Below are positions 3,116 through 63,879 of a DNA stretch of 64,000 nt, in pieces; within the stretch, counting starts at the first letter, position 1, and every line of letters starts with the position of its first letter. A program made the translations under genes and the position numbers. The notes beneath the pieces were generated by a model. That model had not been told where the DNA came from. It worked only from the letters and a program-made list of their open reading frames with translations, and ran no database searches. This stretch comes from an uncultured Endomicrobiia bacterium. Its GTDB lineage: Bacteria > Elusimicrobiota > Endomicrobiia > DTEH01. The DNA is taken from the NCBI GenBank assembly GCA_937936785.1, contig CALDDQ010000004.1:66801-130800 (forward strand). Reading direction: 5' to 3'.

Positions 3116-3853
3116 ATGAAAAAAATAAGTCCTTTAGTGATGAAATTTGGTGGTAGTAGTGTGGCAAATGTGGATAGAATAAAAAATGTAGCAAGTATTA
3201 TTATAGAGCAGAAAAGAGTTTTTAAATATGTTGTTGTGGTAGTATCTGCTCCGGGAGATACTACTGATGATTTAATAGAGAAAGCAAATCAAATCACGCA
3301 AAACCCTGACAAACGTGAACTTGATATGTTACTAGCAACAGGAGAACAAATGTCAATAGCATTACTTTCTATGGCTATTAAAGAAATTGGACATGACTCA
3401 ATATCACTTACAGGTCCACAGGCAGGTATTTATGCAGACGAAATTCATACAAAAGCAAAAATTATTGATATTGATACAAAAAGAATAAAAAAATATTTAA
3501 AACAAGATAAAGTTGTAATAGTTGCAGGATTTCAAGGAATAAATCCAAATGAAGATATAACAACCCTGGGTCGTGGCGGGTCTGATTTAACTGCTATTGC
3601 ATTAGCTGCAAAACTTAAAAGTCCAATATGTGAAATATATACAGATGTAGACGGTGTTTTTACAACAGATCCAAGAGTTGTCCCTGAAGCAAAAAAAATT
3701 GATTATTTAACATATGAAGAAATGCTTGAAATGGCAGGTACCGGCGCACAGGTTATGATGGCAAGATCAATTGAAGTTGCAAAAAAATACAATGTAAAAC
3801 TTGAAATAAAATCTTCACTTACAAGAAAATCAGGAACAATAGTTTATAAATGA
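3116..3853 (+). CDS. Aspartokinase, catalytic amino-acid-kinase domain only (no ACT domains)
   Basis: 245 aa. Has 'VMKFGGSSV', 'VVVSA.GDTTD' and 'GRGGSDLTA', and ends exactly where ACT domains normally begin. Its stop overlaps the start of the next ORF (ATGA). Confidence 0.85.
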   Translation: MKKISPLVMKFGGSSVANVDRIKNVASIIIEQKRVFKYVVVVVSAPGDTTDDLIEKANQITQNPDKRELDMLLATGEQMSIALLSMAIKEIGHDSISLTGPQAGIYADEIHTKAKIIDIDTKRIKKYLKQDKVVIVAGFQGINPNEDITTLGRGGSDLTAIALAAKLKSPICEIYTDVDGVFTTDPRVVPEAKKIDYLTYEEMLEMAGTGAQVMMARSIEVAKKYNVKLEIKSSLTRKSGTIVYK

Positions 3854-8532: not shown

Positions 8533-9030
8533 ATGGTTAAAAGAATTCAAAAGAAAAAAATGGAAGAACCTGTCGTTACTGCAGTAACATTTGATAAAAA
8601 TCAGGTGAAGATGTCAATTTTAGATGTTCCAGACAAACCAGGTGTTGCAGCATATATCTTCGGAGAGTTAGCAAGAGAAAATATTAATGTAGATATGATT
8701 ATTCAATCAGCAGCAAGAGAAGAAACAAACGATATTTCTTTTACAATTTCAAAAACAGATTTAGATAAAGCAAAAGAAGTTATGTCAAAAGCAGTTAAAG
8801 AGTTAAAATCAGATGGATTGATTTTTTCTGACAATGTATGTAAAGTTTCAATTGTAGGTGTTGGTATGAAAAGTCATCCAGGTGTTGCTTATAAAATGTT
8901 TAAGACGTTGTCTGACAATGGCATAAATATAGAGATGATTTCTACTTCTGAAATAAAGATATCTTGCATAATAAAAAAAGAACAGTTAGAATTAGCAGTG
9001 AAATCCTTACACAAAGAATTTATCGGGTAA
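8533..9030 (+). CDS. Aspartokinase regulatory subunit (tandem ACT domains; beta-subunit-like)
   Basis: 165 aa. 'EEPVVTAVTFDKNQVKMSILDVPDKPGVAAYIFGELARENINVDMIIQ' is the canonical start of the aspartokinase ACT region. The ORF has its own RBS (AGGGG) and an ATG start. Confidence 0.85.
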   Translation: MVKRIQKKKMEEPVVTAVTFDKNQVKMSILDVPDKPGVAAYIFGELARENINVDMIIQSAAREETNDISFTISKTDLDKAKEVMSKAVKELKSDGLIFSDNVCKVSIVGVGMKSHPGVAYKMFKTLSDNGINIEMISTSEIKISCIIKKEQLELAVKSLHKEFIG

Positions 9031-14492: not shown

Positions 14493-15047
14493 ATGAAAAA
14501 TGTTTTAATAAAAAATTTTTTTGTTTTAATTTTAATATTCTTATTTGGTTGTGAAAGTTTTCAGCCATCGGTTCAGGTTTTACCTTCTCATATTAAGAAA
14601 CTTTCCGTGCAACAGTTTGTTAACAAAACAAACATTTTTGGATTAGAAGAAAAACTTAAATTAAATACAATTAACGAATTTTTATTAGATGGACGGTTTG
14701 AGATTGAACCTGAAACTAAGGATAGTGATGGGTATATTACGGGAGAAATTTTGTACTACATTTTACAACCAATATCTTATGGACCAAACTATGAACCTCA
14801 ACAGTATAAACTTAGATTAATTATAAACTTTTATTTTGTTGATAAGGCTAACAATGTAACTTTATGGTCTGAACCTAACATTGAAGAAGTTTTATATTTT
14901 TTATCTGCAACATTTCCTGGAGGACTTACAGAAGAAGAAGCTAAAAATACTATTTTGATTAATATGGCAAAAAAAATTTATATAAGGACAATTGAAGGAT
15001 TTGGTTCTGTTACTGGAACTTCGCATAAAAAAGTTCCTCAAAAATAA
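14493..15047 (+). CDS. lptE: LptE-like outer-membrane lipoprotein
   Basis: Signal peptide with lipobox 'LFGC'. It sits in the conserved position between leuS and holA. Confidence 0.5.
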   Translation: MKNVLIKNFFVLILIFLFGCESFQPSVQVLPSHIKKLSVQQFVNKTNIFGLEEKLKLNTINEFLLDGRFEIEPETKDSDGYITGEILYYILQPISYGPNYEPQQYKLRLIINFYFVDKANNVTLWSEPNIEEVLYFLSATFPGGLTEEEAKNTILINMAKKIYIRTIEGFGSVTGTSHKKVPQK

Positions 15048-26401: not shown

Positions 26402-26807
26402 TAATATGAATAAAAAAGTGATAGATTTTATAGAAAACATAAAATATGACGATAAAGGATTGGTGCCAGTAGTTGCACAGGATTATAATGATAATACAGT
26501 TTTAATGGTTGCTTTTATGAACAAGGAAGCTTTAATAAAAACTTTTGAAACTTTTAAGGTTCATTATTATAGCCGTTCACGAGGAAAATTATGGTTAAAA
26601 GGAGAAACTTCTGGCAATGTTCAGATTGTGAAAGAAATATATTTTGATTGTGATAAAGATTGTTTATTGGTAAAAATTGAACAAGTGGGTATTGCGAGTT
26701 GTCATACAGGACATAGAAGTTGTTTTTACAGAACCATATCTAAAGATGGAGAAATTTCTATAGTTGCAGAAAAAGTTTTTAATCCAGAAGATGTTTATAA
26801 AAAATAA
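26388..26807 (+). CDS. hisI: Phosphoribosyl-AMP cyclohydrolase (monofunctional HisI; no HisE domain)
   Basis: 'YYSRSRGKLWLKGETSGN' and 'DCDKDCLLVKIEQ...CHTG..SCF' motifs. The protein is only 139 aa. Confidence 0.85.
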   Translation: MRKNNNMNKKVIDFIENIKYDDKGLVPVVAQDYNDNTVLMVAFMNKEALIKTFETFKVHYYSRSRGKLWLKGETSGNVQIVKEIYFDCDKDCLLVKIEQVGIASCHTGHRSCFYRTISKDGEISIVAEKVFNPEDVYKK

Positions 26808-26811
26808 TAAA

Positions 26812-28299
26812 ATGTTAAATTTAAGTATAGAAGAAGTAAAAAAAATTGTAAAAAAATATTTACATAAAAAATGTGATGTAGTTGTGCCTTTATATAAAGA
26901 GATTTTAGTCGACACAGAAACGCCTGTATCTTTATTTTTAAAACTTGCTGTTGATGAAGAATACGCTTATTTATTAGAAAGTGCACAGACAAGTCTGCAT
27001 TGGGGACGGTATTCTTTTATATCATTTTCTCCAGCAAAACTTATTAAAATAGATAGTATAAGGGAATCTATTTTGCCAAGATTGAGACAAGAATTAAATA
27101 AATATTATGTTCCACAAGAGTTGGTAAAAAATTTGCCAAGATTTTTTGGCGGATTTGTTGGATATTTAAGTTATGAATTAGTTCACGAAATAGAACCAAA
27201 AGTTAAACGCCCGAAGAAAACATATTTGTGTTCATTTCCTGAGATTTTTTTTATGTTCAATTCTGTTACAATAATATTTGACCACTTTTTAAATAAGTTA
27301 AAAATAGTAAATTTAGTTATATCGGATAAAATTGAAAATATTGATGAGTTATATAGATTTTCGGAAGAAAAAATTGATCTTTTGATAAACAAAGTGTTTC
27401 AAAAAAAGTTAAATGAAAAAAGTTTGAAGTATAAAAAAAGTAACGAAAAAAATTTAATTAAAGAATATTATTCTAACATATCAAGAAAAAATTTTATTAA
27501 AAAAATAAAAAAGGCAATAGAATACATTAAAAAAGGAGATGTTATACAAACTGTAATTTCACGAAAATTAATGAAAAAAACTTCTGCAGATACTTTTGAC
27601 ATTTACAGAAGTTTAAGAATTATAAATCCATCCCCATATATGTTTTATCTCAAATTTAGTGATATGTGTTTAATAGGTTCTTCTCCTGAAATTCTTATAA
27701 GGAAAGAAGGAAATATTGTTGAAACAAAGCCTATTGCAGGTACAAGACCAAGAAGTGCAGATGAGATAAAAGATAAAAATTATGAAAAGGAACTAATAAA
27801 TTCTGAGAAAGAAAATGCAGAACATATAATGTTAGTAGATTTAGCAAGGAACGATCTGGGCAAAATTTCGGAGTATAAAACAATTTTTTTGCCTGAACTA
27901 AAAGTTATAGAACGATTTTCACATGTTATGCATATAGTGACTTCAGTTAAAGGTGTTTTGAGAAAAAAATATGATAGTATAGATGTATTATCAGCAGCGT
28001 TTCCTGCTGGTACTGTTAGTGGTGCGCCAAAGGTTCGTGCTATGCAGATAATTTCGCAGTTGGAAGAATATGTTAGAGGACCATATGCTGGTGCAGTTGG
28101 ATATTTTAGTTTAACAGGTAATATGGATATGGCGATTACAATAAGAACAATTGTTTATAAAGATAAAAAAGTTTTTATACAATCAGGGGCAGGAATAGTT
28201 GCAGATTCTATTCCTGAAAAAGAATATGATGAAACATTAAACAAAGCAAAAGCTCTAATGATCGCAATAAAAATGGCTGAAGTAAAAATTAAGGAATAA
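26812..28299 (+). CDS. trpE: Anthranilate synthase component I
   Basis: Chorismate-binding motifs 'SRKL', 'GSSPE' and 'IAGTRPR', and the 'GAVGYF' region. The ATG at 26812 follows the hisI stop and is preferred over the overlapping ORF start at 26764. Confidence 0.88.
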   Translation: MLNLSIEEVKKIVKKYLHKKCDVVVPLYKEILVDTETPVSLFLKLAVDEEYAYLLESAQTSLHWGRYSFISFSPAKLIKIDSIRESILPRLRQELNKYYVPQELVKNLPRFFGGFVGYLSYELVHEIEPKVKRPKKTYLCSFPEIFFMFNSVTIIFDHFLNKLKIVNLVISDKIENIDELYRFSEEKIDLLINKVFQKKLNEKSLKYKKSNEKNLIKEYYSNISRKNFIKKIKKAIEYIKKGDVIQTVISRKLMKKTSADTFDIYRSLRIINPSPYMFYLKFSDMCLIGSSPEILIRKEGNIVETKPIAGTRPRSADEIKDKNYEKELINSEKENAEHIMLVDLARNDLGKISEYKTIFLPELKVIERFSHVMHIVTSVKGVLRKKYDSIDVLSAAFPAGTVSGAPKVRAMQIISQLEEYVRGPYAGAVGYFSLTGNMDMAITIRTIVYKDKKVFIQSGAGIVADSIPEKEYDETLNKAKALMIAIKMAEVKIKE

Positions 28300-28301
28300 A
28301 A

Positions 28302-28907
28302 ATGATACTAATAATAGACAACTATGATTCTTTTACTTACAATCTTGTACAGTATTTAGGAGAATTATGTATTGAAAACGAAAGTGTTTCTCAACCAATA
28401 AAGGTTTATCGTAATGATAAAATAACTATATCAAAAATTAAAAGTTTACGACCAAAGTATATTATAATTTCGCCTGGTCCGTGTACTCCAAAGGAAGCTG
28501 GTGTTTCAGTCAAGGTGATAAAAACTTTTGCAACTAAAATACCTATTTTAGGTGTATGTTTAGGTCATGAATGTGTAGTGGAAGCATTTGGAGGTAAAAT
28601 TATTAAATCAAAGGAAATTTTTCATGGCAAAGTTTCAGAAATATTTCATGATAAAAAAACAATTTATAGTGGATTACCAAATCCTATTAAAGCTACAAGA
28701 TATCATTCATTGATTGCAGAAAAAAAAACTTTGCCAGATTGTTTAGAGATAACTTCGTGGACTAAAAATGGTATAATAATGGGAGTGCGACTTAAAAATA
28801 GTGATTTAAAGAAGTTTTGTGTTGAAGGAGTGCAGTTTCATCCAGAATCGATAATGACACCGGAAGGTAAAAAGTTGTTACTAAATTTCTTGATTTTAGG
28901 CAAGTAG
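28302..28907 (+). CDS. trpG: Anthranilate synthase component II (glutamine amidotransferase)
   Basis: 'ILIIDNYDSFTYNL', 'ILGVCLGHE' and 'VQFHPES' motifs. Confidence 0.9.
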   Translation: MILIIDNYDSFTYNLVQYLGELCIENESVSQPIKVYRNDKITISKIKSLRPKYIIISPGPCTPKEAGVSVKVIKTFATKIPILGVCLGHECVVEAFGGKIIKSKEIFHGKVSEIFHDKKTIYSGLPNPIKATRYHSLIAEKKTLPDCLEITSWTKNGIIMGVRLKNSDLKKFCVEGVQFHPESIMTPEGKKLLLNFLILGK

Positions 28908-28915
28908 AAAAAATT

Positions 28916-29851
28916 ATGGAAAAAAGAAAAGTTGTGGTTATAGACGATGCTGAATCAGTAGCTATTGCTATTCAATATTTATTAGAAACTATGGGTTATG
29001 AAGTTTATGTTGAAAACGATGGTGAAGCGGGTATAAAAAAAGTTTTTGAAGTAAGACCTGATTTGGTAATTTTAGACATAAACATGCCAAAAATGACTGG
29101 ATACGAAGTTGTTGATATAATGAGAAAGGAAGTTTCTACTATGAACACACCGATATTAATGATGTCTGGTTCTACAGATGAGATGGACGAGATTAAAGGG
29201 TTAGAATTAGGTGTAGATGGGTATATTACTAAACCGTTTAATAACGAACTATTTATTGCAAAACTTAAAGCTATATTGATGAGAGCACAACAAAATATTT
29301 CTGTAAACCCACTTACAATGCTTCCTGGTAATATTGCTATTAATAAAGAAATCGAACATAGAATTTTGTCAAAAACAAAATTTGCTGTAATATATACTGA
29401 TTTAAACAATTTTAAAAGTTTCAATGATTATTACGGTTTTGCACGTGGTGATGAAGTTATTAAACATACGGCTAATATTTTGGTTAACGCAATAAAAACA
29501 AAAGGTCACTATAGTGATTTTGTAGGACACATTGGTGGAGATGATTTTGTGGTAGTTTGTATGGTGGACAATGTGGAAAACATTTGTGAGACAATAATTA
29601 AAGATTTTGATAGTTCAATAATAAATTTTTACAATGAGGAAGAAAAAGTTAAGGGTTATATTGAAACTTACAATAGACAGGGAGAACTTAAAAAGTTTGG
29701 TATAATTTCAATAAGTTTATCAGTAGTAACAAATGTTAAACGCGAGATTAAACATATAGGTGAAATTTCTGAGATAAGTGCTGAATTAAAAAGTTATGTA
29801 AAACAATTTGGGAAAAGCAAGTATGTAATTGATAGAAGAGCGGGGACATAA
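28916..29851 (+). CDS. Response regulator with N-terminal REC and a C-terminal GGDEF-like domain carrying a GGDDF variant motif
   Basis: REC motifs 'VVVIDDAESV', 'DLVILDINMP' and 'DGYITKPF'. GGDEF-domain start 'NPLTMLPGN', and 'HYSDFVGHIGGDDFVVV' in place of RxxD...GG(D/E)EF. Confidence 0.85.
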   Translation: MEKRKVVVIDDAESVAIAIQYLLETMGYEVYVENDGEAGIKKVFEVRPDLVILDINMPKMTGYEVVDIMRKEVSTMNTPILMMSGSTDEMDEIKGLELGVDGYITKPFNNELFIAKLKAILMRAQQNISVNPLTMLPGNIAINKEIEHRILSKTKFAVIYTDLNNFKSFNDYYGFARGDEVIKHTANILVNAIKTKGHYSDFVGHIGGDDFVVVCMVDNVENICETIIKDFDSSIINFYNEEEKVKGYIETYNRQGELKKFGIISISLSVVTNVKREIKHIGEISEISAELKSYVKQFGKSKYVIDRRAGT

Positions 29852-29876
29852 TTTTTTATAAAAACAGGGTGAAAAT

Positions 29877-30914
29877 ATGATTAAAGATATGATACAGAAA
29901 ATTGTTAATAGAGAAAATTTATCTGAAAAGGATATGATAGAAGTTATGACAGAAATAATGTCAGGCCAGGCAACAGAATCGCAAATAGCATCGTTTATAA
30001 CTGCTTTAAGAATGAAAGGAGAAACTGTGGAAGAAATTACTGGTGCAGCAAAAGTTATGAAACAGTTTGCTACTCGTGTAGAAATTAAAAAACGAGTTTT
30101 AACAAATGTTAATTATGAAACAATTTTAGACACTTGTGGTACCGGCGGTGATTCAACTAAAACGTTTAACATTTCTACAGCGACTGCTTTTGTAGTATCA
30201 TCTTGTGATGTTTTAGTGGCGAAACATGGTAATAGGTCGGTATCTTCCTTATGTGGTTCTGCAGATGTCGTAGAACAACTCGGTATTAAGTTGGAGATAA
30301 CGAAAGATAAAGCAGAAAAATGTTTGTCAGAATTAGGAATAGTATTTTTATTTGCTCCGATTTGGCATAGTGCAATGAAATATGCGCTTGGTCCACGAAA
30401 ACAAATAGGTATTAGAACAATTTTTAACATTATAGGACCACTTACAAATCCTGCAGGTGCAAATGCACAAGTTTTAGGTGTTTATTCAAAAACTCTTTTA
30501 AAACCGATTGCTGAAGTATTAAAAAATTTAGGTTCTAAACATTCGTTTGTTGTTCATAGTGAAGATATGATGGACGAAATAAGTATTACTGGAAAAACTC
30601 ATATAGCAGAGTTAAAAAATGGTAGTATTTCGTTTTATGACATTGTCCCGGAGCAATTTGGTATAAAAAAATGTTCTATTGACGATTTGAAAGGTGCTGA
30701 TGCTAAAGAAAATGCAGAGATTATTTTAAGAATAGTTTCTGGTAAAGAGAATGGTCCAAAAATGGATGTTGTAATTTTAAATTCAGCATTTGCATTGGTT
30801 GCAGCAGGAAAGGTAAAAAGTATTGAGGAAGGTATAGTTTTAGCAAGAGATGTTATTAACAGAGGTTTGGTAATAGAAAAAATTAATATGTTAAAAGAAT
30901 ATACAAATGAATAA
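29877..30914 (+). CDS. trpD: Anthranilate phosphoribosyltransferase
   Basis: 'ILDTCGTGGDSTKTFNIST' and 'VAKHGNRSVSS' motifs. Confidence 0.9.
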   Translation: MIKDMIQKIVNRENLSEKDMIEVMTEIMSGQATESQIASFITALRMKGETVEEITGAAKVMKQFATRVEIKKRVLTNVNYETILDTCGTGGDSTKTFNISTATAFVVSSCDVLVAKHGNRSVSSLCGSADVVEQLGIKLEITKDKAEKCLSELGIVFLFAPIWHSAMKYALGPRKQIGIRTIFNIIGPLTNPAGANAQVLGVYSKTLLKPIAEVLKNLGSKHSFVVHSEDMMDEISITGKTHIAELKNGSISFYDIVPEQFGIKKCSIDDLKGADAKENAEIILRIVSGKENGPKMDVVILNSAFALVAAGKVKSIEEGIVLARDVINRGLVIEKINMLKEYTNE

Positions 30915-31698
30915 TTTGCATCCAGTATTAGATTCAATATTAGATAAAAAGAGGCATACTATTGCTCATAGAAAAACAATATTGCCAATAGGCAAAATTT
31001 TAAAAGATATTGAATTAAAAAAGAAAGAACATAGAAATTTTTTAAATTCAATAAAACAGGATAAAAAAATATCAATAATTGCAGAATGTAAACGTGCAAC
31101 GCCGTCTATGGGAATAATTAGAGAAAAATATAATTTAGAAAAGATTTTGTTAGAATATCAAAAAAATGATATAGCAGCTATTTCAATTTTAACCGAGGAA
31201 CATTTTTTTCACGGGGATTTATATCATTTATTTCAAGCTAAAAAAACAGTTTTTTTACCTGTGTTGAGAAAAGATTTTATAATTGATAAATATCAAATAT
31301 TTGAAAGTTTATTTTTTGGTGCTGATGCAATTTTGTTAATAAAAAAAATTTTAACTAAAAAAGAGATGTTAGAGTTTTATACAATTGCACGAGATTTAGG
31401 TTTAGAGGTTATCTTTGAAGTTACTAACAAAGATGAGATAGAAGAAGTTTTAGAACTAAATCCAAAAATTATAGGATTGAACAATCGTGATTTGGAAACA
31501 TTTGAAGTTGATGTCTATAAAACATTGAAATTAAGAAAATATGTTCCGGAAAATATTTGTTTAATTTCTGAAAGTGGAATAAAGTCTAAGTCGGATATGG
31601 AGTTGTTAAAAACTGCAAATGTAGATGCAGTTTTAATTGGAACACTTTTTATGCAGTCAAACAATATTACTCAAACAATAAATTCATTAAGAAATTAA
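30907..31698 (+). CDS. trpC: Indole-3-glycerol-phosphate synthase
   Basis: 'IIAECKRATPSMG', 'ISILTEEHFF.G' and 'GLNNRDLETFEVD' motifs. Confidence 0.9.
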   Translation: MNNLHPVLDSILDKKRHTIAHRKTILPIGKILKDIELKKKEHRNFLNSIKQDKKISIIAECKRATPSMGIIREKYNLEKILLEYQKNDIAAISILTEEHFFHGDLYHLFQAKKTVFLPVLRKDFIIDKYQIFESLFFGADAILLIKKILTKKEMLEFYTIARDLGLEVIFEVTNKDEIEEVLELNPKIIGLNNRDLETFEVDVYKTLKLRKYVPENICLISESGIKSKSDMELLKTANVDAVLIGTLFMQSNNITQTINSLRN

Positions 31699-31701
31699 TT
31701 T

Positions 31702-32394
31702 ATGGTAAAAGTAAAAATTTGTGGAATAACAAATAAAGAAGATGCTTTTTGGGCGTCAAGTTTAGGAGCAGATTTTATAGGGATAAATTTGTGCAAACAT
31801 TCTACAAGAAAGGTATCGCTAAAAACTGCAAAAGAAATTGTTAATTCATTACCAAAATATACTACAGCTGTATTAGTATTTGTTAATGAGAGAGAGGAAG
31901 ATATTGTTAAAATTGTAAATAAATTAAATGTTCAATATGTTCAGCTACATGGTGATGAGACAGAAGAGTTTTGTTCACAGTTAAAAATGAAGATTCCAAC
32001 AATAAAGATTATTAAAGTTATAAAAATAGTTTCAGATTTTACTGACGAAAATTTAGAAAAATCAACTATAATTAATGATTATGTAGAAAAGATAAAAAAT
32101 TTTGTCTCTAAAGTTGATTATATTTTATTTGATACATATATAGATAATAAAGAAGGTGGGACGGGAAAAGTTTTTGATTGGAATATATCTAAATTAGTGA
32201 AAGAAACTTTAGAAAAACAAAATTTTAAACTACAATTTTTTGTAGCAGGTGGACTTAATTCAGAAAATGTTAGTAAAGTTATAGAAGTTTTAGAACCGTT
32301 TGCGGTTGATGTTTCTTCTGGTATAGAGAGGTTACCAAGAAGGAAAGATTTTGAGCAAATGAAAAATTTTATAAGAAAGGTTAAAGGAAGTTAA
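31702..32394 (+). CDS. trpF: Phosphoribosylanthranilate isomerase
   Basis: 'VKVKICGITNKEDA' start and 'VQLHGDET'. Confidence 0.85.
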   Translation: MVKVKICGITNKEDAFWASSLGADFIGINLCKHSTRKVSLKTAKEIVNSLPKYTTAVLVFVNEREEDIVKIVNKLNVQYVQLHGDETEEFCSQLKMKIPTIKIIKVIKIVSDFTDENLEKSTIINDYVEKIKNFVSKVDYILFDTYIDNKEGGTGKVFDWNISKLVKETLEKQNFKLQFFVAGGLNSENVSKVIEVLEPFAVDVSSGIERLPRRKDFEQMKNFIRKVKGS

Positions 32395-32397
32395 GGT

Positions 32398-33213
32398 ATG
32401 ATTAAAAAAATAATTCTGTTGATAATTTTAATATTTTTATTTAACAAAAATATTGTTATTTCTAATAACGATATTGTGAAAAAACCAGTTGCTATAGTAG
32501 TAAAAGTAAGGGGTGAAACATATATTATTCGGAAAAAAGAAAAATTAAAAGCTAACATTTATATGCCATTATATATTCAGGATAAAATTCAAACAAAATC
32601 TGCTTCCACATTGGAACTAATTTTTGATAATGGTGTAAGTTTTAAGATTGAAGAAAATTGTGATATCGAGATAAAAATGATAACAACAACGGTTATGGAA
32701 GGAAAAAAACTTTCTTCAGTTGAATTAGAAATTGATGTTGATAATGGTGGTCTTTTAGTAGATGCAAAAACTATTGATAGTGAGTATAAATTAACTAAGA
32801 TGAAAGTTTATACTCCAACTGCGACTGCTGCAATACGTGGCACAGTGTTTTATACATTAGTCAAAGATGATGGTAGAACAGATTTAGCCGTATTTGAAGG
32901 AGAAGTTGAAGGATATGTTGGAAAGAAAGAAGAATTAGATGATTTAGATATTAAAACAAAAATTATAAAAAATCAGCAAACAAATATCACTGAACTAACA
33001 ACAGTTCCGCCAGTAGTATCTTTATCATCTGAAATGAAAGAGTATAGAGATACGGTGGTGAGAAAATTTGTTGAAGAAGTTCAATTATATAGAAAAAAAA
33101 TTGATACTTTAAAACAAAAAAGACAAGATTGGATAAACAAAAATAAGTCAGACTTTGAAAAAGATATAGAAGATAAGAAAAAGAATTTTAGAAAAAAATA
33201 TTTAAATGAATAA
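32398..33213 (+). CDS. FecR-domain secreted protein
   Basis: Signal peptide. 'TPTATAAIRGTVF' is a typical FecR-domain motif. Confidence 0.55.
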   Translation: MIKKIILLIILIFLFNKNIVISNNDIVKKPVAIVVKVRGETYIIRKKEKLKANIYMPLYIQDKIQTKSASTLELIFDNGVSFKIEENCDIEIKMITTTVMEGKKLSSVELEIDVDNGGLLVDAKTIDSEYKLTKMKVYTPTATAAIRGTVFYTLVKDDGRTDLAVFEGEVEGYVGKKEELDDLDIKTKIIKNQQTNITELTTVPPVVSLSSEMKEYRDTVVRKFVEEVQLYRKKIDTLKQKRQDWINKNKSDFEKDIEDKKKNFRKKYLNE

Positions 33214-33232
33214 ATAGAGCAGGAGATTAAAA

Positions 33233-33466
33233 ATGGATCAAAAAATAAAAGATAAAATTAAACAAAAACTTGAAGAAGTAAAACCGATGTTACAACGTGA
33301 TGGTGGAGATTTAGAATTAGTAGAAATTACTGATGATGGTGTTGTGAAAATAAAACTTATAGGGATGTGTGCTCATTGTGCAATGTCTACTATGACAGTA
33401 AAAATGGGAATAGAAAGTGTTTTAAAAAAAAGTTTTTCAGAAGTGAAATCAGTAGAAAATGTTTAA
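33233..33466 (+). CDS. NifU-like (Nfu C-terminal domain) Fe-S cluster scaffold protein
   Basis: 77 aa, with 'LQRDGGDLELVEI...IKLIGMCAHCAMST'. Confidence 0.8.
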   Translation: MDQKIKDKIKQKLEEVKPMLQRDGGDLELVEITDDGVVKIKLIGMCAHCAMSTMTVKMGIESVLKKSFSEVKSVENV

Positions 33467-34313
33467 AATTTGTTTTTATGACAAGCAACTGAATAAATAC
33501 TTTAAAAATTCTAAGATAAAAATTAAAATATTCTCTGTCCATTATGACTACATAAATTTAATTACACAAGACAATATAATAATAACAATTATAAAAGAAC
33601 ACTTACAGAATTTACCTTTTTCAAGTCATAGCATAGTTTTAGATAAAAAAAGTTTAACAGAAGATTTTGATTTTAGAGACAAGATAATTCTAAACGATAA
33701 AATATGCTTTAATAAAACAAAAATAATTTTTTTTAAAAGTAATATAATATTTGATTTACATGGTTCCAAAGCACAAAAATTGCCACAGATAAAAATAAAA
33801 AATTGTAATATAAACCGTCAGTTATTAAATTATTTTTTGAAGTGTTTAATTTTAAGAAAAAAGATGATTACGAGAAATACCTTAGTTTTAAGTATAAAAT
33901 TTTTCAATAATTTAAACATAGATAGTTACATAGAAACGATGATAAAAAAATTTATAGGTTTAGGGACAGGTTCAACGCCAGAATTTGACGATTTCATCTG
34001 TGGTGTATTGACTTCATTTTATATTTTTGATAAAACAAAATCCTTGTCGGAAAAAGGTAGAAGTAAGTTTATGCTAATAAAAAAAACATTAATTAAACAC
34101 AAAGAAAAAACAACTTTACTAAGTCAAAACTTTATCACACAAGTTTGTAATTCAAAATATCCTTTGTTAATAGTTAGATTTGTGGAAAGTTTGTTTAATA
34201 ATAATATTTGCAAATCAGAAAAAATTTTTAATTTAATTTTAAATAAAGGCAATAATTCTGGATGGTGGTTTTTGTATGGATTTTTAAAAACGATGAAATT
34301 AAAAAAAGTTTAA
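33459..34313 (+). CDS. Hypothetical protein, candidate DUF2877 (YlbF-like) family
   Basis: 284 aa. 'GLGTGSTPEFDDF' resembles the conserved Gly/Thr-Pro-x-GDD motif recalled for DUF2877. The gene sits directly upstream of an FdrA homolog. The call rests on genomic context plus a weak motif. Confidence 0.4.
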   Translation: MFKICFYDKQLNKYFKNSKIKIKIFSVHYDYINLITQDNIIITIIKEHLQNLPFSSHSIVLDKKSLTEDFDFRDKIILNDKICFNKTKIIFFKSNIIFDLHGSKAQKLPQIKIKNCNINRQLLNYFLKCLILRKKMITRNTLVLSIKFFNNLNIDSYIETMIKKFIGLGTGSTPEFDDFICGVLTSFYIFDKTKSLSEKGRSKFMLIKKTLIKHKEKTTLLSQNFITQVCNSKYPLLIVRFVESLFNNNICKSEKIFNLILNKGNNSGWWFLYGFLKTMKLKKV

Positions 34314-34328
34314 AAAGGATGATAAAAA

Positions 34329-35882
34329 ATGAAAAACATAATAAAACCAAATTGTTTTTATGATTCTATACTGTTGATGCAAATAGCCAGTGTTTTATCA
34401 AAACAATATTCAAGTGAAGTTACACTTATGATGGGAACGGATGCAAACAAATCTTTGTTAAGAGAGAGAAAAATGTTAACTTCAGATGGAGAAAAAGCTT
34501 CTGTTAACGATTTGATAATATGTTTTGATAAAAATGTTGATGAAAAAAAAGTTTTTGATACTATAGAAACTTTTTCAAAATCTTCTTCAAATCAAAAACA
34601 AGATTTAATTGTAGAAGACAAAATACCTCAGAATACAAACTTGATTTTAGTGTCTATTCCTGGCGAGTTTGTTTTTTATGAAGTTAAAAAAATAATAGAA
34701 GAATTTGTGTCGCAAGGAGAATCAGTTTTAGGACATAAACTTTGTATTTTTATATTTAGTGACAATGTTTCTATTGAGGAAGAAAAAGAACTAAAATTAT
34801 CAGCCTTAAAAAAAAATATTTTAATAATGGGACCGGATTGTGGAACAGCAGTTGTAAATGGTTTAGGATTAGGATTTTCAAACAATATCAGAACAATTTT
34901 TGATAATAACAATATTTCTAAACAAGGTATTGGAATAATTAGTGCAGGAGGTACAGGATTACAAGCAATAATGACTATGATACACAACTTTGGATATACC
35001 ATATCTCAGGCAATAGGTACAGGAAGTAGAGATTTGTCTGAAGAGGTTGGGGGTATAACATTTCTGGAAAGTATAAAATATTTGGAAAAAGATCCTTACA
35101 CTAAAACTATAATATTATTTTCAAAACCACCTTCGGAAAAAGTAGTAAAAAAAATAACTGAGTATATATCTAAAAATTGTAGAAAAATGTATGTTTTAAA
35201 CTTGTTAGGTTTAAATAAGAAACAAGAGGTTAAAAATATTTTTTTTGCACAAACTATGCAAGAAGCAGTTGTTAAAGCAATTAAAGTTATTAACCCAAAG
35301 TTTGAAATAAGAAATAAAATAACAGTATCAACATCTTTTTGGGTAAACAAATTAAAAAAAACTAACAGAAAATATGTCAGAGGATTATTTTCAGGAGGTT
35401 CTTTGTGTGAAGAAACTGCTATAGTGCTAAAAAAATATATTGGTGATGTTTATTCAAATATCCCTATTGAAAAAAATCATAAATTACCAAATCCGTGGAA
35501 AAGTTTTAAAAACACAATAATAGATTTAGGAGATGACATATTTACTCGTGGTAAACCACATCCAATGATAGATTTTACATTTAGAAAAGAAAGAATGATA
35601 GAAGAATCAAAAGATAAAGAAGTTGCTATAATAATTTTTGATTTAGTTTTAGGTTGGGGATCTAATATAGAACCAATAAAAGAAATAAGAGATACAATAA
35701 AACTATCCATAAAAAATTCAAATTCGCAGATACTATTTTGTGCAATAATTGTTGGTACAGAAAAAGATGTGCAAAATTATGCCAATATAGAGAGGCAGTT
35801 AAAAAAATTAGGTGTTATGACATTTAATTCTAATGTTACTATGTCAGAATTTGTAGGAAAAATTTTGCAGGATTTGGGGTAA
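34329..35882 (+). CDS. fdrA: FdrA-like protein (succinyl-CoA-synthetase-alpha-like CoA-binding fold)
   Basis: The N-terminus 'YDSILLMQIASVL' matches the FdrA family's DSV.LM signature, and the downstream segments are Gly-rich. Size is 517 aa. Confidence 0.75.
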   Translation: MKNIIKPNCFYDSILLMQIASVLSKQYSSEVTLMMGTDANKSLLRERKMLTSDGEKASVNDLIICFDKNVDEKKVFDTIETFSKSSSNQKQDLIVEDKIPQNTNLILVSIPGEFVFYEVKKIIEEFVSQGESVLGHKLCIFIFSDNVSIEEEKELKLSALKKNILIMGPDCGTAVVNGLGLGFSNNIRTIFDNNNISKQGIGIISAGGTGLQAIMTMIHNFGYTISQAIGTGSRDLSEEVGGITFLESIKYLEKDPYTKTIILFSKPPSEKVVKKITEYISKNCRKMYVLNLLGLNKKQEVKNIFFAQTMQEAVVKAIKVINPKFEIRNKITVSTSFWVNKLKKTNRKYVRGLFSGGSLCEETAIVLKKYIGDVYSNIPIEKNHKLPNPWKSFKNTIIDLGDDIFTRGKPHPMIDFTFRKERMIEESKDKEVAIIIFDLVLGWGSNIEPIKEIRDTIKLSIKNSNSQILFCAIIVGTEKDVQNYANIERQLKKLGVMTFNSNVTMSEFVGKILQDLG

Positions 35883-35915
35883 TTAAAATTATATTATCTA
35901 CAGGGAGCAAAAAAA

Positions 35916-37343
35916 ATGAAACAGTGTTCATCTACAAAACTTAAAGTTGCGAATTTAGGTGTGAGATGGTTTTATGAAAGTATTTTAAAACAAAAAAATA
36001 TTGATGTTGTTCATATAAACTGGTCTCCAAAAGGTAAGACAAAAAATGTTTATCGTTTATTGGACAAATTATATAAAAATAAAAATTTGCAAAAAAAGAT
36101 TGATGTTGCGAACAAAGTTGTAATTGACAAAATTTCTTCTTCAGCACCATTTTTAGTTGGTATAGAACAAGCATACAAAGTTGTTCCCGAGATGAATAAG
36201 TTTACAATTTTACATGCGGGACCACCAATAGAATATGAAAAAATGTGTGGTCCGATGAAAGGGGCAGTTTTAGGTGCACTTATGTATGAAGGAATAGCAA
36301 AAGATAAATTTGAAGCAGAAAAAATTGTTTTGAGTGGAAAAATTAAGTTTGACTCTTGTCATCATCATAATATGGTAGGACCAATGGCAGGGGTTGTTTC
36401 AGCTTCAATGCCAGTATGGATTTTAAAAAACTTAACTTTTAATAACTATGCTTATACAACACTTAACGAAGGTTTAGGGAAAGTATTACGTTTTGGTGCG
36501 TATAGTAAAGAAGTAATAAAACATCTTAAATGGATGGAAGAAATTTTATTTCCAGTTTTGAAAAAAGTTATAAAATTAATAACAAAAAAAAGTTATGGTA
36601 TAGATATAAAAACCATAACCGCTCAAGCATTAACTATGGGTGATGAGTGCCATAATAGAAATGTTGCAGCAACAAATTTGTTTTTAAAAGAAATATTACC
36701 CTATATGATAGAATTAAATCTAAACAAAAAGATATTTTTAGATATCATAAAATTTATTTCCTCAAACCCACATTTTTATTTAAATATTTCAATGCCTGCG
36801 TGCAAATGTAGCACAGATATTGTAGAAGGGATAAGATTTTCGTCAGTGATATATACAATGGCACGAAATGGAGTTAATTTTGGGATAAGAGTTTCCGGGT
36901 TACCAAAAAAATGGTTTGTTGCACCATCTGGTATGCCAAAAGGATTATATTTTAGCGGATATAAAGAATCTGATGGCAATCCTGATCTCGGTGATTCTAC
37001 AATTTCAGAAGTTGTTGGTATTGGAGCATTTGCAATGGCTTGTGCACCTGCGATTGTAAAGTTTGTTGGTGGTGTTGCAGATGATGCTAAAAAATATACT
37101 TTAGATATGTACAAAATTTGTATTGGTGAACATAAGAATTTTTTAATACCACAATTTAATTTTAGAGGAACACCGTTGGGAGTTGACATAATTAAGGTTT
37201 TAGAAACAGGGATTTCGCCCATAATAAATACCGGAATTGCACACAAAGAACCTGGAATAGGACAAATTGGTGCTGGGATACTTTCAGCTCCGATGGAATG
37301 TTTTATTACTGCATTTGAAGAATTTATGAACGAATATAGTTGA
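35916..37343 (+). CDS. DUF1116 (YlbE-like) protein
   Basis: 475 aa. The call comes from its position after fdrA, as in the E. coli fdrA–ylbE–ylbF cluster. No signature motif was confidently recalled. Confidence 0.55.
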   Translation: MKQCSSTKLKVANLGVRWFYESILKQKNIDVVHINWSPKGKTKNVYRLLDKLYKNKNLQKKIDVANKVVIDKISSSAPFLVGIEQAYKVVPEMNKFTILHAGPPIEYEKMCGPMKGAVLGALMYEGIAKDKFEAEKIVLSGKIKFDSCHHHNMVGPMAGVVSASMPVWILKNLTFNNYAYTTLNEGLGKVLRFGAYSKEVIKHLKWMEEILFPVLKKVIKLITKKSYGIDIKTITAQALTMGDECHNRNVAATNLFLKEILPYMIELNLNKKIFLDIIKFISSNPHFYLNISMPACKCSTDIVEGIRFSSVIYTMARNGVNFGIRVSGLPKKWFVAPSGMPKGLYFSGYKESDGNPDLGDSTISEVVGIGAFAMACAPAIVKFVGGVADDAKKYTLDMYKICIGEHKNFLIPQFNFRGTPLGVDIIKVLETGISPIINTGIAHKEPGIGQIGAGILSAPMECFITAFEEFMNEYS

Positions 37344-37478
37344 TAGTGTTTAGATAAATTATTATTTGAACTAAAAGGTTTGATTTTATTTTTAAGTTTT
37401 TTTTGCTAAAAAATATACGCAAATAAACTTTTATTATAAAAAATATTCTGAAAACATAAAAATAACATTAACCAAATA

Positions 37479-38864
37479 ATGGAGATAATTATGAAAGAAA
37501 AAAAGATATTGTTGTTAGAAAAAGAAATACCACAAAAGTGGTATAATATAACTGCTGATTTACCTGGTCAAATACCACCACCATTACATCCTGTAACAGG
37601 AGAACCTATTGGTCCACAAGATTTATCTAAAATATTTCCTATGGGTCTTATTATGCAGGAAGTTTCACAGGAAAGATGGATAGAAATACCTGATGAAATT
37701 TTAAGAGTATATAACATATGGCGGCCAACACCTTTAGTTCGCGCATATGAATTAGAAAAATTTTTAAATACACCTGCAAGAATATATTACAAAAACGAAA
37801 GTGTATCTCCAGCAGGAAGTCACAAACCCAACACAGCAGTTGCTCAAGCATATTATAACAAACAAGAAGGAGTGAAACGTTTAACTACAGAGACAGGCGC
37901 AGGACAATGGGGTTCATCATTAGCTTTTGCGTGTAACATTTTTGGATTACAATGTACAGTTTATATGGTAAAAGTTAGTTACCAGCAAAAACCGTTTCGT
38001 CGATCACTAATGCAAGTTTGGGGTGCGGAAGTTTTTGCTTCGCCTACGGAAAGAACCAATGCTGGAAAAAGTGTTTTGTCTAAAGATCCAAATTCACCTG
38101 GTAGTTTAGGTATTGCAATTTCTGAAGCTGTAGAAGATGCATCTACGCATGATGATACTAAATATACTTTAGGTAGTGTATTAAATCATGTAATGTTGCA
38201 TCAGACAATTGTAGGGCTTGAAGTTCAGAAACAATTATCAATTGCCGGTGAAAAACCGGATATTTTGATAGGTTGTGTTGGTGGAGGAAGTAACTTTAGT
38301 GGATTTATATTTCCCTTCGTTGCAGATAAAATTTTAGGTAAAAATAACATAAAATTTTTAGCTGTGGAACCTACTGCATGTCCTACATTAACAAAAGGAG
38401 AATATACTTACGATTATGGCGATTCTGTAGGTTTAGCCCCATTAATAAAGATGTATACTTTAGGTCACAACTTTATGCCAGCAAAAATTCATGCTGGTGG
38501 ATTAAGATATCATGGTGATTCTCCTCAATTATGTTTTTTAGTTAATAAAAAGGTTGTAGATGCAGTTGCGGTATCACAAAAACCAGTTTTTGATGCAGCA
38601 ATAATTTTTGCAAAAACTGAAGGTATAATACCTGCTCCTGAGTCAGCTCATGCAATAAGAGTCGCAATTGATGAAGCGTTGAAATGTAAACAAACTAAAG
38701 AAGAAAAATGTATTGTTTTTAATCTAAGTGGACATGGACATTTTGATCTATCTGCTTATGATCAATACATAGAGGGTAAATTGGAAGATTATGAGTATCC
38801 AGAACAAGAAATTAGGAAAAATTTAGAAGAAATTAAAAATATGGTTAAGAAAAAAGATTTTTAG
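37479..38864 (+). CDS. trpB: Tryptophan synthase beta-like protein, TrpB2 (long form)
   Basis: 461 aa with an extended N-terminus, the PLP-lysine motif '[14 protein letters not shown]', and 'GCVGGGSNF'. The true start may be the ATG at 37491. Confidence 0.88.
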
Positions 38865-43450: not shown

Positions 43451-43653
43451 TTATATCTAAAGTTACATAACAAATTAAATAAAAATCAATAAAAAATTAT
43501 AAGTATAAACGATAGTTATGATTTAAGAATTATTAGATCTAATTTTTTACTTAGAACTTAAAAAGTATAATTTGTTTTGCTAATAGTATAAATTTTTAGT
43601 ATAGAATTTTTTGTTTTATAGTGAATTTGGATATAAATTTTTTGTAGAAAAAT

Positions 43654-47351: not shown

Positions 47352-47376
47352 GTTGTTATTAGAAAATGCCAAAGGT

Positions 47377-47709
47377 ATGAATCGACCAATTTTAAAAGTA
47401 GAATTAATTGACAAAGATAAAGCAGAATGGTCTGGTGTTAACGATTTTGTGCAAAGAGGCTCAAACAGATTCTTGAAAAGATTTTACAATTATACTATTA
47501 TGAATTCACCAACATTTTGTATTTGTTATGAATGTATAATTGCATTATTGCCAGAATGTAATGAAGTAACGGTTGTAGATTGCGAATATACTGGAATTAC
47601 ACCGGTAGGTATAAATTTTGATACACTGGCAAATTTGATTAGTGATGTTTATCATACAGAAGGATTTTTAGGTGTTGGGCGATTATATTTAGCAAACAAA
47701 AAATTTTAG
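47377..47709 (+). CDS. Cys-rich hypothetical protein (ORFan)
   Basis: 110 aa from the first ATG (the track ORF starts at a TTG at 47353). It has six Cys residues in 'FCICYECIIALLPECNEVTVVDCEY' and no family resemblance that I recognise. Confidence 0.4.
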   Translation: MNRPILKVELIDKDKAEWSGVNDFVQRGSNRFLKRFYNYTIMNSPTFCICYECIIALLPECNEVTVVDCEYTGITPVGINFDTLANLISDVYHTEGFLGVGRLYLANKKF

Positions 47710-48551: not shown

Positions 48552-49499
48552 ATGGAACAAGTTATAGAAAAGTGGAATTCTGAGATTGTAACAACGGTTA
48601 TTGGTAGTACTAATATTAATGGTGGGACACGTTCTACTGTTATAAAAGTTGGTGGGCAGATGTCGTTGCCAATGTTGAGTTTTGAAGGAAAAATTCCAAA
48701 CAGACCTGTTGTTTTTGCAGAAGTTTTAGATTTTTTATCAGACGATTTGTGGCCACTGTTTTATTCAAACTATAGTGAAATGACAAAAGATTTGTTCAGT
48801 TGGATAAAAGAAATTGAGAAAAATGAACCAGATGGATTATGTATAAGGTTAACTTCTTGTGATCCTGAGACAAAAAATAATTCCACAGAATATATAAAAA
48901 AGATTATCCCGGAAATTTTAAAAATTACAAAATTGCCTTTGATATTTTTAGGATGTGACAATGTAGAACGTGATACAGAAATATTGCCACTTATTTGTGA
49001 AATTACTAGAGGAGAAAAAATTTTGGTTGGTATGGCAGTTAAAGAAAATTATAAAACAATTTCATTGTCTGCATATGCTAATGAACATAGTGTTATTGCA
49101 CAATCGCCTTTAGATATAAATTTAGCTAAACAGTTAAATATTTTAATAAATGATATTGGAGTTCCATTGGAAAGAATAGTTATGCATCATACAACAGGTG
49201 GGTTGGGATATGGGTTTGAATATTGTTATTCCATAATGGAACGTTGTCGGTTAGCAGGTTTGCAAGGAGATAAAGTTGTTGCAACCACAATTATAAATCT
49301 TGTTGGAGAAGAAACATGGAAAACAAAAGAATCTAAGGTAGGATTAGATGAAGAACCCAGATGGGGCAATCCATTACACAGGGCAATAAATTGGGAATTT
49401 GTAACTGCGTTAGGATATCTTCAAGCAGGGTCTGATATTTTAGTGTTAGTTCATCCTGAAAATATAAAAAATGTAAAAAGAATAATAAATACGTTTTAA
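48552..49499 (+). CDS. acsD: AcsD/CdhD-like protein (corrinoid iron-sulfur protein small subunit family)
   Basis: 'GSTNINGGTRSTVIKVGGQMSLPMLSFEGKIPNRPVV' and 'SPLDINLAKQLNILINDIGVPL...GGLGYGFEY..SIMERCRLAGLQGD' closely parallel Moorella AcsD as I recall it. Confidence 0.65.
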   Translation: MEQVIEKWNSEIVTTVIGSTNINGGTRSTVIKVGGQMSLPMLSFEGKIPNRPVVFAEVLDFLSDDLWPLFYSNYSEMTKDLFSWIKEIEKNEPDGLCIRLTSCDPETKNNSTEYIKKIIPEILKITKLPLIFLGCDNVERDTEILPLICEITRGEKILVGMAVKENYKTISLSAYANEHSVIAQSPLDINLAKQLNILINDIGVPLERIVMHHTTGGLGYGFEYCYSIMERCRLAGLQGDKVVATTIINLVGEETWKTKESKVGLDEEPRWGNPLHRAINWEFVTALGYLQAGSDILVLVHPENIKNVKRIINTF

Positions 49500-63249: not shown

Positions 63250-63641
63250 GGGGGTGAAATGGTCTCGACAGGAAGTTTAAATGATATTTTGTGCAAGCAG
63301 TGGTTGGTCGAAGGGCCACTTTAAAAATCGGCCAAAAATAAGTGCAAATACAAATTTTGCATTTGCTGCTTAATTAAGCAGATATATTCTGAAAAAAAGC
63401 CTGTATTTTCAGAATGAAGGATTTCAGGTGCCTTCCCTGATAGGTAAAACCAGGGTATTTTATACAACAGGTTCTTATGTTGTATAAAAGAAAATTTTTA
63501 AAAAGAACTTTAGCTAAAAATCTTTTCATAGAGAGATTTTTAGCCGAGAATTCTGACTTTTGTCAGAGATTATCTATGATAAGCTTGTAGGACAAAATAT
63601 TATTTTCTTCTTGGACGCGGGTTCGATTCCCGCCACCTCCA
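63250..63641 (+). ncRNA. ssrA: tmRNA (ssrA), predicted tag peptide ANTNFAFAA
   Basis: 5' end 'GGGGGTGAAATGGTCTCGACAGG' and 3' tRNA-like end 'GGACGCGGGTTCGATTCCCGCCACCTCCA' parallel E. coli tmRNA. The 5' GGGGGUG pairs with 3' CACCUCC to form the acceptor stem. The tag ORF is GCA AAT ACA AAT TTT GCA TTT GCT GCT TAA at 63344-63373. CCA is not encoded. Confidence 0.85.
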
Positions 63642-63879
63642 CTAAATATGTTGCTGTAGTATTTAATTAACTTTAATATCAAACTAAGATATTATAATTA
63701 AGACAACGTTTTAAACATTTTAATTCTGAGATAAAGAAAAAATTATTTCCATTCATATAAAAAAGATATCTTTATAATATAAACTGATAAATTCAACTAA
63801 AAATTATATGTTTGGTTTGAAATAATAATAAAACTTTATTTTTAAATTTTATATGTATATAAAAAATGTTACCAGAATA

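Follow-up and report, generated by a model that had tools for sequence, protein, structure and literature searches.

Two sets of neighbouring genes in Escherichia coli are the closest described counterparts of the genes treated here. The proteins AllF, AllG and AllH (FdrA, YlbE and YlbF) have been purified and together form an oxamic transcarbamylase, with the reaction oxalurate + Pi <-> carbamoyl phosphate + oxamate; the allFGHK operon includes a carbamate kinase gene and adjoins allECD (Kim & Kim 2024, PMC11326118). The second set consists of yahE (DUF2877, 287 amino acids [aa]), yahF (515 aa) and yahG (DUF1116, 472 aa), followed by the carbamate kinase-like yahI and by yahJ, an amidohydrolase gene; our literature searches found no characterisation of YahEFG. 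We analysed 64 kb of DNA from an uncultured Endomicrobiia bacterium (contig CALDDQ010000004.1, positions 66,801 to 130,800, hereafter the window), in which three consecutive genes of these families (the triad) lie between tryptophan biosynthesis genes and a stand-alone TrpB2 gene. An earlier note, made from the sequence alone, had related the triad to fdrA-ylbE-ylbF and had correctly named oxamate carbamoyltransferase as the activity assigned to that set (PMC11326118). It went on to propose a different substrate, possibly connected with tryptophan metabolism. We consider it probable that the triad encodes an accessory AllFGH-like transferase that forms carbamoyl phosphate and is being lost in its lineage, and that its place beside the trp genes is inherited synteny in a compact genome.

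Judged from its sequence, the triad is a real and intact set of the AllFGH/YahEFG family. All three open reading frames (ORFs) are full length and free of frameshifts, and their plus-strand positions are exactly those given by the earlier note (Table 1). The presence of the three families in adjacent genes, with the invariant residues of each subunit, agrees with the AllFGH family in the broad sense that includes YahEFG. AllG is the most conserved subunit. It matched the Pfam profile AllG/DUF1116 (PF06545) with 303.9 bits, kept every invariant column of a 19-sequence alignment and found PDB entry 3CLQ, an "uncharacterized protein", at E = 5e-125. AllF found PDB entry 3DMY ("Protein fdrA") at E = 1.7e-48 and the PDB entries of succinyl-CoA synthetase alpha only weakly (E around 1e-4). 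It keeps the motif G-x-P-H-P-M-I-D, of which G408, H411 and P412 recur without exception in the 88 AllF sequences compared; its score against the NCBIfam FdrA model NF004760 was 368 bits, below the cut-off of 433. AllH is the most divergent subunit, and its assignment to DUF2877 had been doubted. The assignment is upheld by 59.3 bits against the AllH/DUF2877 profile PF11392 (cut-off 25) and by the conservation of 12 of 12 invariant columns in a 32-sequence AllH alignment (GxGxGxTPxxDD...G...G..SG.....G). The match spans residues 165-277 only, because the model is a C-terminal domain of 109 positions, and this explains the earlier doubt. A word-based search of 5.8 billion proteins with AllH returned the query itself and one relative (42% identical) only, and a search of the solved structures in the PDB returned no match.

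The triad and E. coli AllFGH consist of the same three families in adjacent genes; both have G-x-P-H-P-M-I-D in AllF, and their AllG proteins share the invariant residues Cys-His and D-E-x-H-x-R-N. The correspondence to fdrA-ylbE-ylbF therefore holds for the families, but the gene order, the protein lengths and the subunit boundary are those of yahE-yahF-yahG. The genes in the window run DUF2877, FdrA-like, DUF1116 (H-F-G), whereas the order in the characterised E. coli set is allF-allG-allH, and the products measure 284/517/475 aa against 287/515/472 aa for YahEFG and 555/419/271 aa for fdrA-ylbE-ylbF. About 45 C-terminal residues of E. coli AllF are found at the N-terminus of AllG in the window, where residues 9-52 match that tail. 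AllG aligns with YahG from end to end at 45% identity, and with E. coli AllG, likewise at 45%, over residues 65-468 only. The BLASTP identity of AllF is 36% with YahF and 30% with E. coli AllF; AllH is 26% identical to YahE over the C-terminal half and weakly similar (19%) to E. coli AllH. Succinyl-CoA synthetase alpha has the same CoA_binding and Ligase_CoA domains as AllF, but the similarity is very low, the set in the window has no beta subunit, and the activity demonstrated for the family is carbamoyl transfer and not CoA ligation.

The likeness to YahEFG extends to the gene order and the long DUF1116 protein (about 470 aa), but the window contains no carbamate kinase or YahJ-like amidohydrolase, and its AllG lies outside the YahG clade. 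In a neighbour-joining tree of 119 AllG sequences, with bootstraps on a 48-taxon subset, six Endomicrobiia AllG formed one clade (100/100 bootstraps) nested among Elusimicrobiota members of a group that we call cyclase-linked after its usual partner gene. The split of the Endomicrobiia and neighbouring Elusimicrobiota from YahG and AllG was found in 98/100 bootstraps. YahG grouped with carbamate-kinase-linked loci (L031, L054, L071, L080 and L081), and E. coli AllG was placed elsewhere. On this phylogeny the triad is the orthologue of neither E. coli set and belongs to a separate clade.

The same placement bears on the possibility that the triad is a bona fide oxamate carbamoyltransferase, converting oxalurate derived from allantoin or other ureides to carbamoyl phosphate and oxamate for nitrogen salvage or ATP, with the carbamate kinase and the upstream ureide genes elsewhere in the genome. 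Phosphorolysis of oxalurate is the sole activity demonstrated for the family (PMC11326118), the three subunits are intact with their family-invariant residues, and the view was limited to 64 kb of the genome. However, the triad stands outside the E. coli AllG clade, scores below the NF004760 cut-off, and shows neither an allK operon nor a linkage to allantoin genes. Essentially every sizeable ORF of the window was scanned against Pfam and/or NCBIfam, and no carbamate kinase, allantoinase, ureidoglycolate gene, ornithine or aspartate transcarbamylase, or trpA was found in the 64 kb; tblastn of E. coli TrpA, AllK and ArgI gave nothing below E = 0.1. Both searches agree with the earlier note on the absence of carbamate kinase, allantoin genes and trpA. 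E. coli AllFGH is accompanied by the allK carbamate kinase and by allB/C/D/E, and the window has none of these. In its own clade the usual partners are a molybdenum hydroxylase and a PF04199 hydrolase and not the all genes, as described below, and we regard this explanation as unlikely.

The neighbourhoods of homologous AllG loci (numbered with the prefix L) were taken from the best 80 of more than 583 genomic matches, from 45 metagenomic loci and from the contigs of individual proteins, so the census is biased to the best matches. AllG identity to the window was at most 58% among the best 80 genomic loci and at most 56% among the metagenomic ones. ORFs were annotated by BLASTP against a reference set, in which the detection of AllH is insensitive and its counts are underestimates. 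At the 124 homologous loci outside the Endomicrobiia, AllB was found once, AllC, AllD, AllE and AllA never, and carbamate kinase 13 times; a trp gene, TrpB2 or NifU was found at none (0/124). The homologues thus co-occur neither with trp genes or TrpB2 nor mainly with allantoin genes, the two settings between which the earlier note had expected such a survey to decide.

Of these loci, 47 have at least 8 kb on both sides. Among them AllF was detected at 44, the very divergent AllH at 31 (an underestimate), and a PF04199 'cyclase' hydrolase at 37, mostly immediately 3' of AllG. Carbamate kinase was found at 8, allantoin genes at 0-1, and trp genes, TrpB2, NifU, a CooC-like gene, ArgG and FTHFS at none. 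Unsupervised clustering of the neighbours within 6 kb, with the clusters annotated by Pfam afterwards, brought out a molybdenum hydroxylase of the xanthine-dehydrogenase family as a recurrent partner (large subunit at 36 loci, FAD subunit at 30 and 2Fe-2S subunit at 30). The other recurrent partners were an unknown protein of ~230 aa (33 loci), a thiolase-like protein (23), a DUF35-like protein (15), Xan_ur_permease (xanthine/uracil, 15), a PucR regulator (11) and CoA_transf_3 (family III CoA-transferase, 10). In Anaerocolumna aminovalerica (L052) the order is the ~230-aa protein, thiolase, DUF35, AllH, AllF, AllG, cyclase, the FAD, 2Fe-2S and molybdenum cofactor subunits, and the permease. 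Further examples among loci L005-L088 and L092-L136 are those of Alkaliphilus transvaalensis (L051) and Clostridium rhizosphaerae (L022), and cyclase-linked clusters are spread over Clostridia, Chloroflexota, Spirochaetota, Elusimicrobiota and others. The PF04199 partner resembles arylformamidase with 57 bits, far under the orthologue cut-off of 223, and an amidohydrolase in some Elusimicrobiota loci is cytosine-deaminase-like. From its gene content the cyclase-linked cluster looks like an anaerobic catabolic pathway for a nucleobase-like N-heterocycle, part of neither allantoin nor tryptophan metabolism; our literature searches found no characterisation of it. We also observed a protein of ~360 aa, without Pfam or NCBIfam match, that adjoins AllG in several loci (L007 8914-9996, L008 9015-10097, also L016 and L092-L096) and sits between AllF and AllG wherever both genes are seen.

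The cyclase-linked AllH-AllF-AllG clusters are the closest sequence relatives of the triad (AllG 47-58% identical), but the window lacks everything that accompanies them, namely the PF04199 hydrolase 3' of AllG (37/47), the molybdenum hydroxylase, thiolase/DUF35, the permease and PucR. Pfam found no PF04199 hydrolase or molybdenum hydroxylase among the ORFs of the window, none of the thiolase/DUF35, permease and PucR genes of the homologous clusters was present there, and tblastn of the window with the PF04199 cyclase gave a best match of E = 0.001 over 58 aa, inside murJ. The phylogeny and these partners suggest that the natural substrate of the clade cannot simply be assumed to be oxalurate. 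The earlier proposal of a substrate other than the established one therefore stands in part, since the separate clade and its different partners point that way, but the trp context given as the reason for it does not. It is possible, though we hold this only tentatively, that the triad belongs to a third AllFGH-like clade whose substrate is not oxalurate, and that in the Endomicrobiia it was cut loose from its pathway and re-used alone. A candidate substrate would be another N-acylurea, produced by the ring-opening PF04199 hydrolase after oxidation of a nucleobase-like heterocycle by the molybdenum hydroxylase. The re-used enzyme might harvest carbamoyl phosphate from an environmental ureide, possibly with a four-cysteine metal site in AllF.

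The packing of the genome has to be considered before any meaning is given to the neighbours of the triad. The window has about 28% G+C and a positive GC skew throughout, 65 of its 68 genes are on the plus strand, and the coding density is about 95%. Gaps between co-directional genes have a median of 9 nt, and 46 of 63 are no longer than 35 nt. One unbroken run carries murA, his, trp, response regulator, triad, ferritin, folate and thiamine genes. On the plus strand its order is prfA, prmC, murA-like, hisD, hisB, hisA, hisI, trpE, trpG, a response regulator (RR)-GGDEF gene, trpD, trpC, trpF, a FecR-domain gene, NifU (77 aa), AllH, AllF, AllG, TrpB2, ferritin-like, FTHFS, FTCD_C cyclodeaminase, CDF transporter, folD, thiS, thiG, thiH, thiF and thiE. 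The tight chaining from hisD to AllG reported earlier is real, with gaps up to +33 nt, but there are several overlaps (down to -44 nt) and not the single one counted then. Because the same packing is found across the whole window, the chaining of the triad to trpF is not distinctive, and operon-like chaining says little on function in this genome. The gap between AllG and TrpB2 is 135 nt, as the earlier note had it, and is among the 7 largest of the 63. Scans for promoters (108 sites against 117 expected) and terminator-like sites (8 against 5.3 expected) were uninformative in DNA so rich in AT. On the plus strand no terminator-like site was found outside coding sequence from trpF to TrpB2, and an Rfam scan gave no leader or riboswitch, either in the spacer before TrpB2 or around the his and trp genes. 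Co-transcription of the triad with the upstream genes is plausible and is uninformative on its function.

Comparison with related genomes was more telling. The nearest protein relatives of AllG come from metagenome-assembled genomes of Endomicrobiia/Elusimicrobiota (79%, 69% and 62% identical), followed by a tail at 52-58% from many phyla. L137 (AllG 80% identical to that of the window) has AllH, AllF and AllG; L138 (79%) has AllF, AllG and a CooC-like gene; L003 (69%) has trpF, NifU, AllH, AllF, AllG, a CooC-like gene and RadC. The AllH of the window is 42% identical to that of L137 and 33% to that of L003. L004 and L139 (62%) have ArgG, AllG and a CooC-like gene, followed in L004 by TrpB2 and further on FTHFS. 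In these two the full-length AllG (L004 10001-11431, L139 936-2369) has no AllH or AllF alongside, which leaves two readings, a triad in the course of being lost or an AllG that functions without the other two subunits.

A search with TrpB2 found L140, the closest TrpB2 with genomic context, and L141-L144. The order in L140 is RR-GGDEF, trpD, trpC, trpF, FecR, NifU, TrpB2, ferritin, FTHFS, FTCD_C, CDF and FolD, which is that of the window gene for gene, minus the triad. By blastn, L140 1-4427 corresponds to 29115-33467 of the window, with the break at the NifU stop, and L140 4618-5986 to 37487-38855, where the alignment resumes at the TrpB2 start. A spacer of ~190 nt in L140 takes the place of 4.0 kb in the window, and tblastn found no remnant of the triad there. 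The window is closer to L140 (TrpF 65%, NifU 82%) than to L003 (TrpF 48%, NifU 75%). Because L003, which bears the triad, is more distant than L140, which does not, the simplest history is a deletion in the L140 lineage. A recent horizontal insertion of the triad was also considered and rejected, since its G+C content (0.273) equals that of the flanks (0.280 and 0.294) and the more distant L003 has the same arrangement. L141-L144 carry ArgG, a CooC-like gene, TrpB2, Macro, Pterin_bind, FTHFS and the genes of carbon monoxide dehydrogenase/acetyl-CoA synthase (CODH/ACS), but no AllG. In TrpB2 they are 86-88% identical to L004, where AllG is still present, so that this counts as a second, independent loss. 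The slot 5' of the CooC-like gene or TrpB2 in Endomicrobiia holds a full triad, AllG only, or nothing, while trp-FecR-NifU and TrpB2-FTHFS stay in place. Because NifU and TrpB2 persist without the triad, neither is dedicated to it.

Table 1. The triad, its flanking features and the segment missing from locus L140, in positions of the window (PLP, pyridoxal phosphate)
Feature	Position	Strand	Match or remark
Nfu-type NifU-domain protein, 77 aa (flank, not part of the enzyme)	33233..33466	+	Pfam NifU, 88 bits
AllH-like subunit (DUF2877), 284 aa	33459..34313	+	Pfam PF11392
AllF/FdrA-like subunit, 517 aa, succinyl-CoA-synthetase-alpha-like fold	34329..35882	+	Pfam CoA_binding + Ligase_CoA
AllG-like subunit (DUF1116), 475 aa	35916..37343	+	Pfam PF06545
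AT-rich AllG-TrpB2 spacer, 135 nt	37344..37478		CooC-like ATPase gene at this place in relatives
Stand-alone TrpB2 (TrpB-like PLP enzyme)	37479..38864	+	NCBIfam NF009057
Presence/absence segment relative to L140 (triad + 135-nt spacer)	33468..37486		blastn

These comparisons speak strongly against the functional coupling to the trp operon and TrpB2 that the earlier note had put forward. Such a role might consist in processing an indole-, serine- or carbamoyl-type intermediate for TrpB2, or in making up for the lack of TrpA. It is true that trpF-NifU-AllH-AllF-AllG is found in both the window and L003, that AllG is near TrpB2 in both the window and L004, and that trpA is missing from the window and from the retrieved stretches of L004, L140, L141 and L143. 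But L140 keeps trpD-trpC-trpF-FecR-NifU-TrpB2 without the triad, L141-L144 keep TrpB2 without AllG, and the other homologues have no trp gene or TrpB2 nearby. Moreover, TrpB2 genes are well known to occur on their own, away from trp operons (PMC1854888), and we consider carbamoyl transfer and the cleavage of indole-glycerol phosphate to be chemically unrelated. A tryptophan-pathway role for the triad is thus extremely unlikely.

The TrpB2 gene itself was called correctly in the earlier note. Its product scored 742 bits against the equivalog NF009057 (cut-off 366) and 165 bits only against the TrpB1 model TIGR00263 (cut-off 392). It is 86% identical to the TrpB2 of L140, 75-79% to those of L004 and L141, and 76-79% to those of L141-L144, and the gene stays beside the FTHFS block whether the triad is present or absent. 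In the trp cluster (26764-32394) the RR-GGDEF gene between trpG and trpD and the FecR-domain gene after trpF are both kept in L140 (1-5989). The window and the stretches retrieved for L004, L140, L141 and L143 showed neither trpB1 nor trpA. The combination of trpE, trpG, trpD, trpC and trpF with TrpB2 only is a curiosity of the clade, independent of the triad, and trpA may be elsewhere in the genome.

A further explanation links the triad to its other neighbour, as a metal- or Fe-S (iron-sulfur)-dependent Endomicrobiia variant matured by the translationally coupled Nfu-type NifU. The end of NifU and the start of AllH share 8 nt, and the same ...GAAAATGTnTAn overlap is found in L003 as in the window. 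In AllF, C9, C65, C139 and C471 occur in 3 of 3 Endomicrobiia sequences and in no more than 1 of the 85 from elsewhere, where column 139 holds His or Asn; the clade has kept all seven cysteines of this subunit. The four cysteines may form a lineage-specific metal site, a weak lead drawn from three sequences. Small Nfu proteins are, however, general Fe-S carriers. NifU stays beside TrpB2 in L140, where there is no triad, and hence is not dedicated to it, and NifU was found near none of the 124 other homologues. The dependence on the NifU scaffold suggested earlier was not borne out by these comparisons, and we consider such a variant very unlikely.

The losses in related genomes could also mean that the triad is a non-functional relic heading for deletion. 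The triad is patchy, partial or absent in close relatives, its usual pathway partners are absent from the window, and there are other signs of decay in the genome, such as a fragment of ACS-beta at 47353-47709. To this reading we give a very small chance, because the three ORFs are full length, without frameshifts and with every checked family-invariant residue kept, and because the AllG identity of 79-80% to L138 and L137 suggests continuing purifying selection.

We therefore return to the accessory transferase as the probable explanation. The enzyme would consist of three subunits, the FdrA-like subunit related to succinyl-CoA synthetase alpha, the DUF1116 subunit and the DUF2877 subunit. 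In a reversible reaction it would cleave an N-carbamoyl amide (oxalurate or another N-acylurea) with phosphate to carbamoyl phosphate and the free amide; by analogy with the oxamic transcarbamylase of E. coli, the only characterised member, this is the most likely chemistry. Catalysis could plausibly involve the His that is invariant in the FdrA-like subunit, and the product would pass to a carbamate kinase or to a biosynthetic transcarbamylase, either of them encoded outside the window. In the Endomicrobiia the module appears to have been stripped of the usual partners of its clade, as an accessory function lost piecemeal. It may well share a transcript with its neighbours, but it would have no function in common with the tryptophan genes, TrpB2 or NifU.

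Several observations weigh against this explanation. The order trpF-NifU-AllH-AllF-AllG is conserved in two genomes, the window and L003, down to an identical NifU/AllH overlap, and NifU and the triad are likely co-expressed in both. In the window and in L004 alike, no more than one gene separates AllG from TrpB2. The L140 locus is one metagenomic contig of 14 kb, and the absence of the triad from it could in principle reflect strain-level variation or mis-assembly. The proposed chemistry is extrapolated from a protein that is about 30-45% identical, and neither a carbamate kinase nor any other gene using carbamoyl phosphate is present in the 64 kb.

In L003, L004, L138 and L139 a ParA-like gene lies directly 3' of AllG; its product has the Walker A sequence GKGGVGKT and a C-x-C motif that is conserved. 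Among solved structures it comes closest to CooC, the ATPase that matures CODH/ACS (3KJE, E = 1.4e-15), and the two align at the CYC motif. We considered whether it was an Mrp/NBP35 Fe-S carrier pairing with NifU and rejected this, since CooC is the best structural relative, including the C-x-C. By these matches the CooC-like gene belongs with the downstream Wood-Ljungdahl block (CODH/ACS, FTHFS). It is absent from the window. In related Endomicrobiia full CODH/ACS genes lie beside FTHFS and the CooC-like ATPase (L141 14487-16243; L143 17393-19609). The window contains an ACS/CODH beta fragment of 118 aa (47353-47709), which covers positions 59-173 of the 245-position Pfam model and is bordered by gaps of 295 and 235 nt, and a CdhD-like gene (48552-49499). 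This suggests that the carbonyl branch of the Wood-Ljungdahl pathway is decaying in the lineage of the window, with FTHFS, the FTCD_C-type cyclodeaminase and FolD kept. The 135-nt spacer may have originated from the loss of the CooC-like gene and the decay of this pathway.

Some other features of the window were recorded. A 245-aa AA_kinase protein (3116-3853) has the only amino-acid-kinase fold in the window. We asked whether it could be an overlooked carbamate kinase and decided against this, because it is the aspartate kinase adjoining thrB. Its gene encodes the catalytic domain only, and two ACT domains are found in another protein, of 165 aa, encoded 4.7 kb downstream (8533-9030), so that aspartate kinase appears to be split over two genes. 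The leaders before thiC (722-822) and thiS (43451-43653) are 101 and 203 nt long, and no thiamine pyrophosphate riboswitch was found in them at the Rfam gathering score. Of the Rfam families, tmRNA alone was detected in the window (gene at 63250-63644; RF00023, 162.8 bits). The ORFs at 3850-5373 (507 aa) and 14493-15047 (184 aa) had no Pfam match at E <= 1e-5.

The comparative evidence removes the idea, based on guilt by association, of an FdrA-type enzyme that serves tryptophan metabolism and might replace TrpA. The lesson is that chaining in a compact genome with its genes on one strand is not to be read as functional coupling. For the family, AllFGH-like triads fall into at least three classes of context: with allantoin genes and carbamate kinase, as YahEFG with carbamate kinase, and with a PF04199 hydrolase and a molybdenum hydroxylase. 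The last class is widespread and uncharacterised in the literature that we searched. It is a reasonable target in the search for a new anaerobic route of N-heterocycle degradation, which would conserve energy through carbamoyl phosphate.

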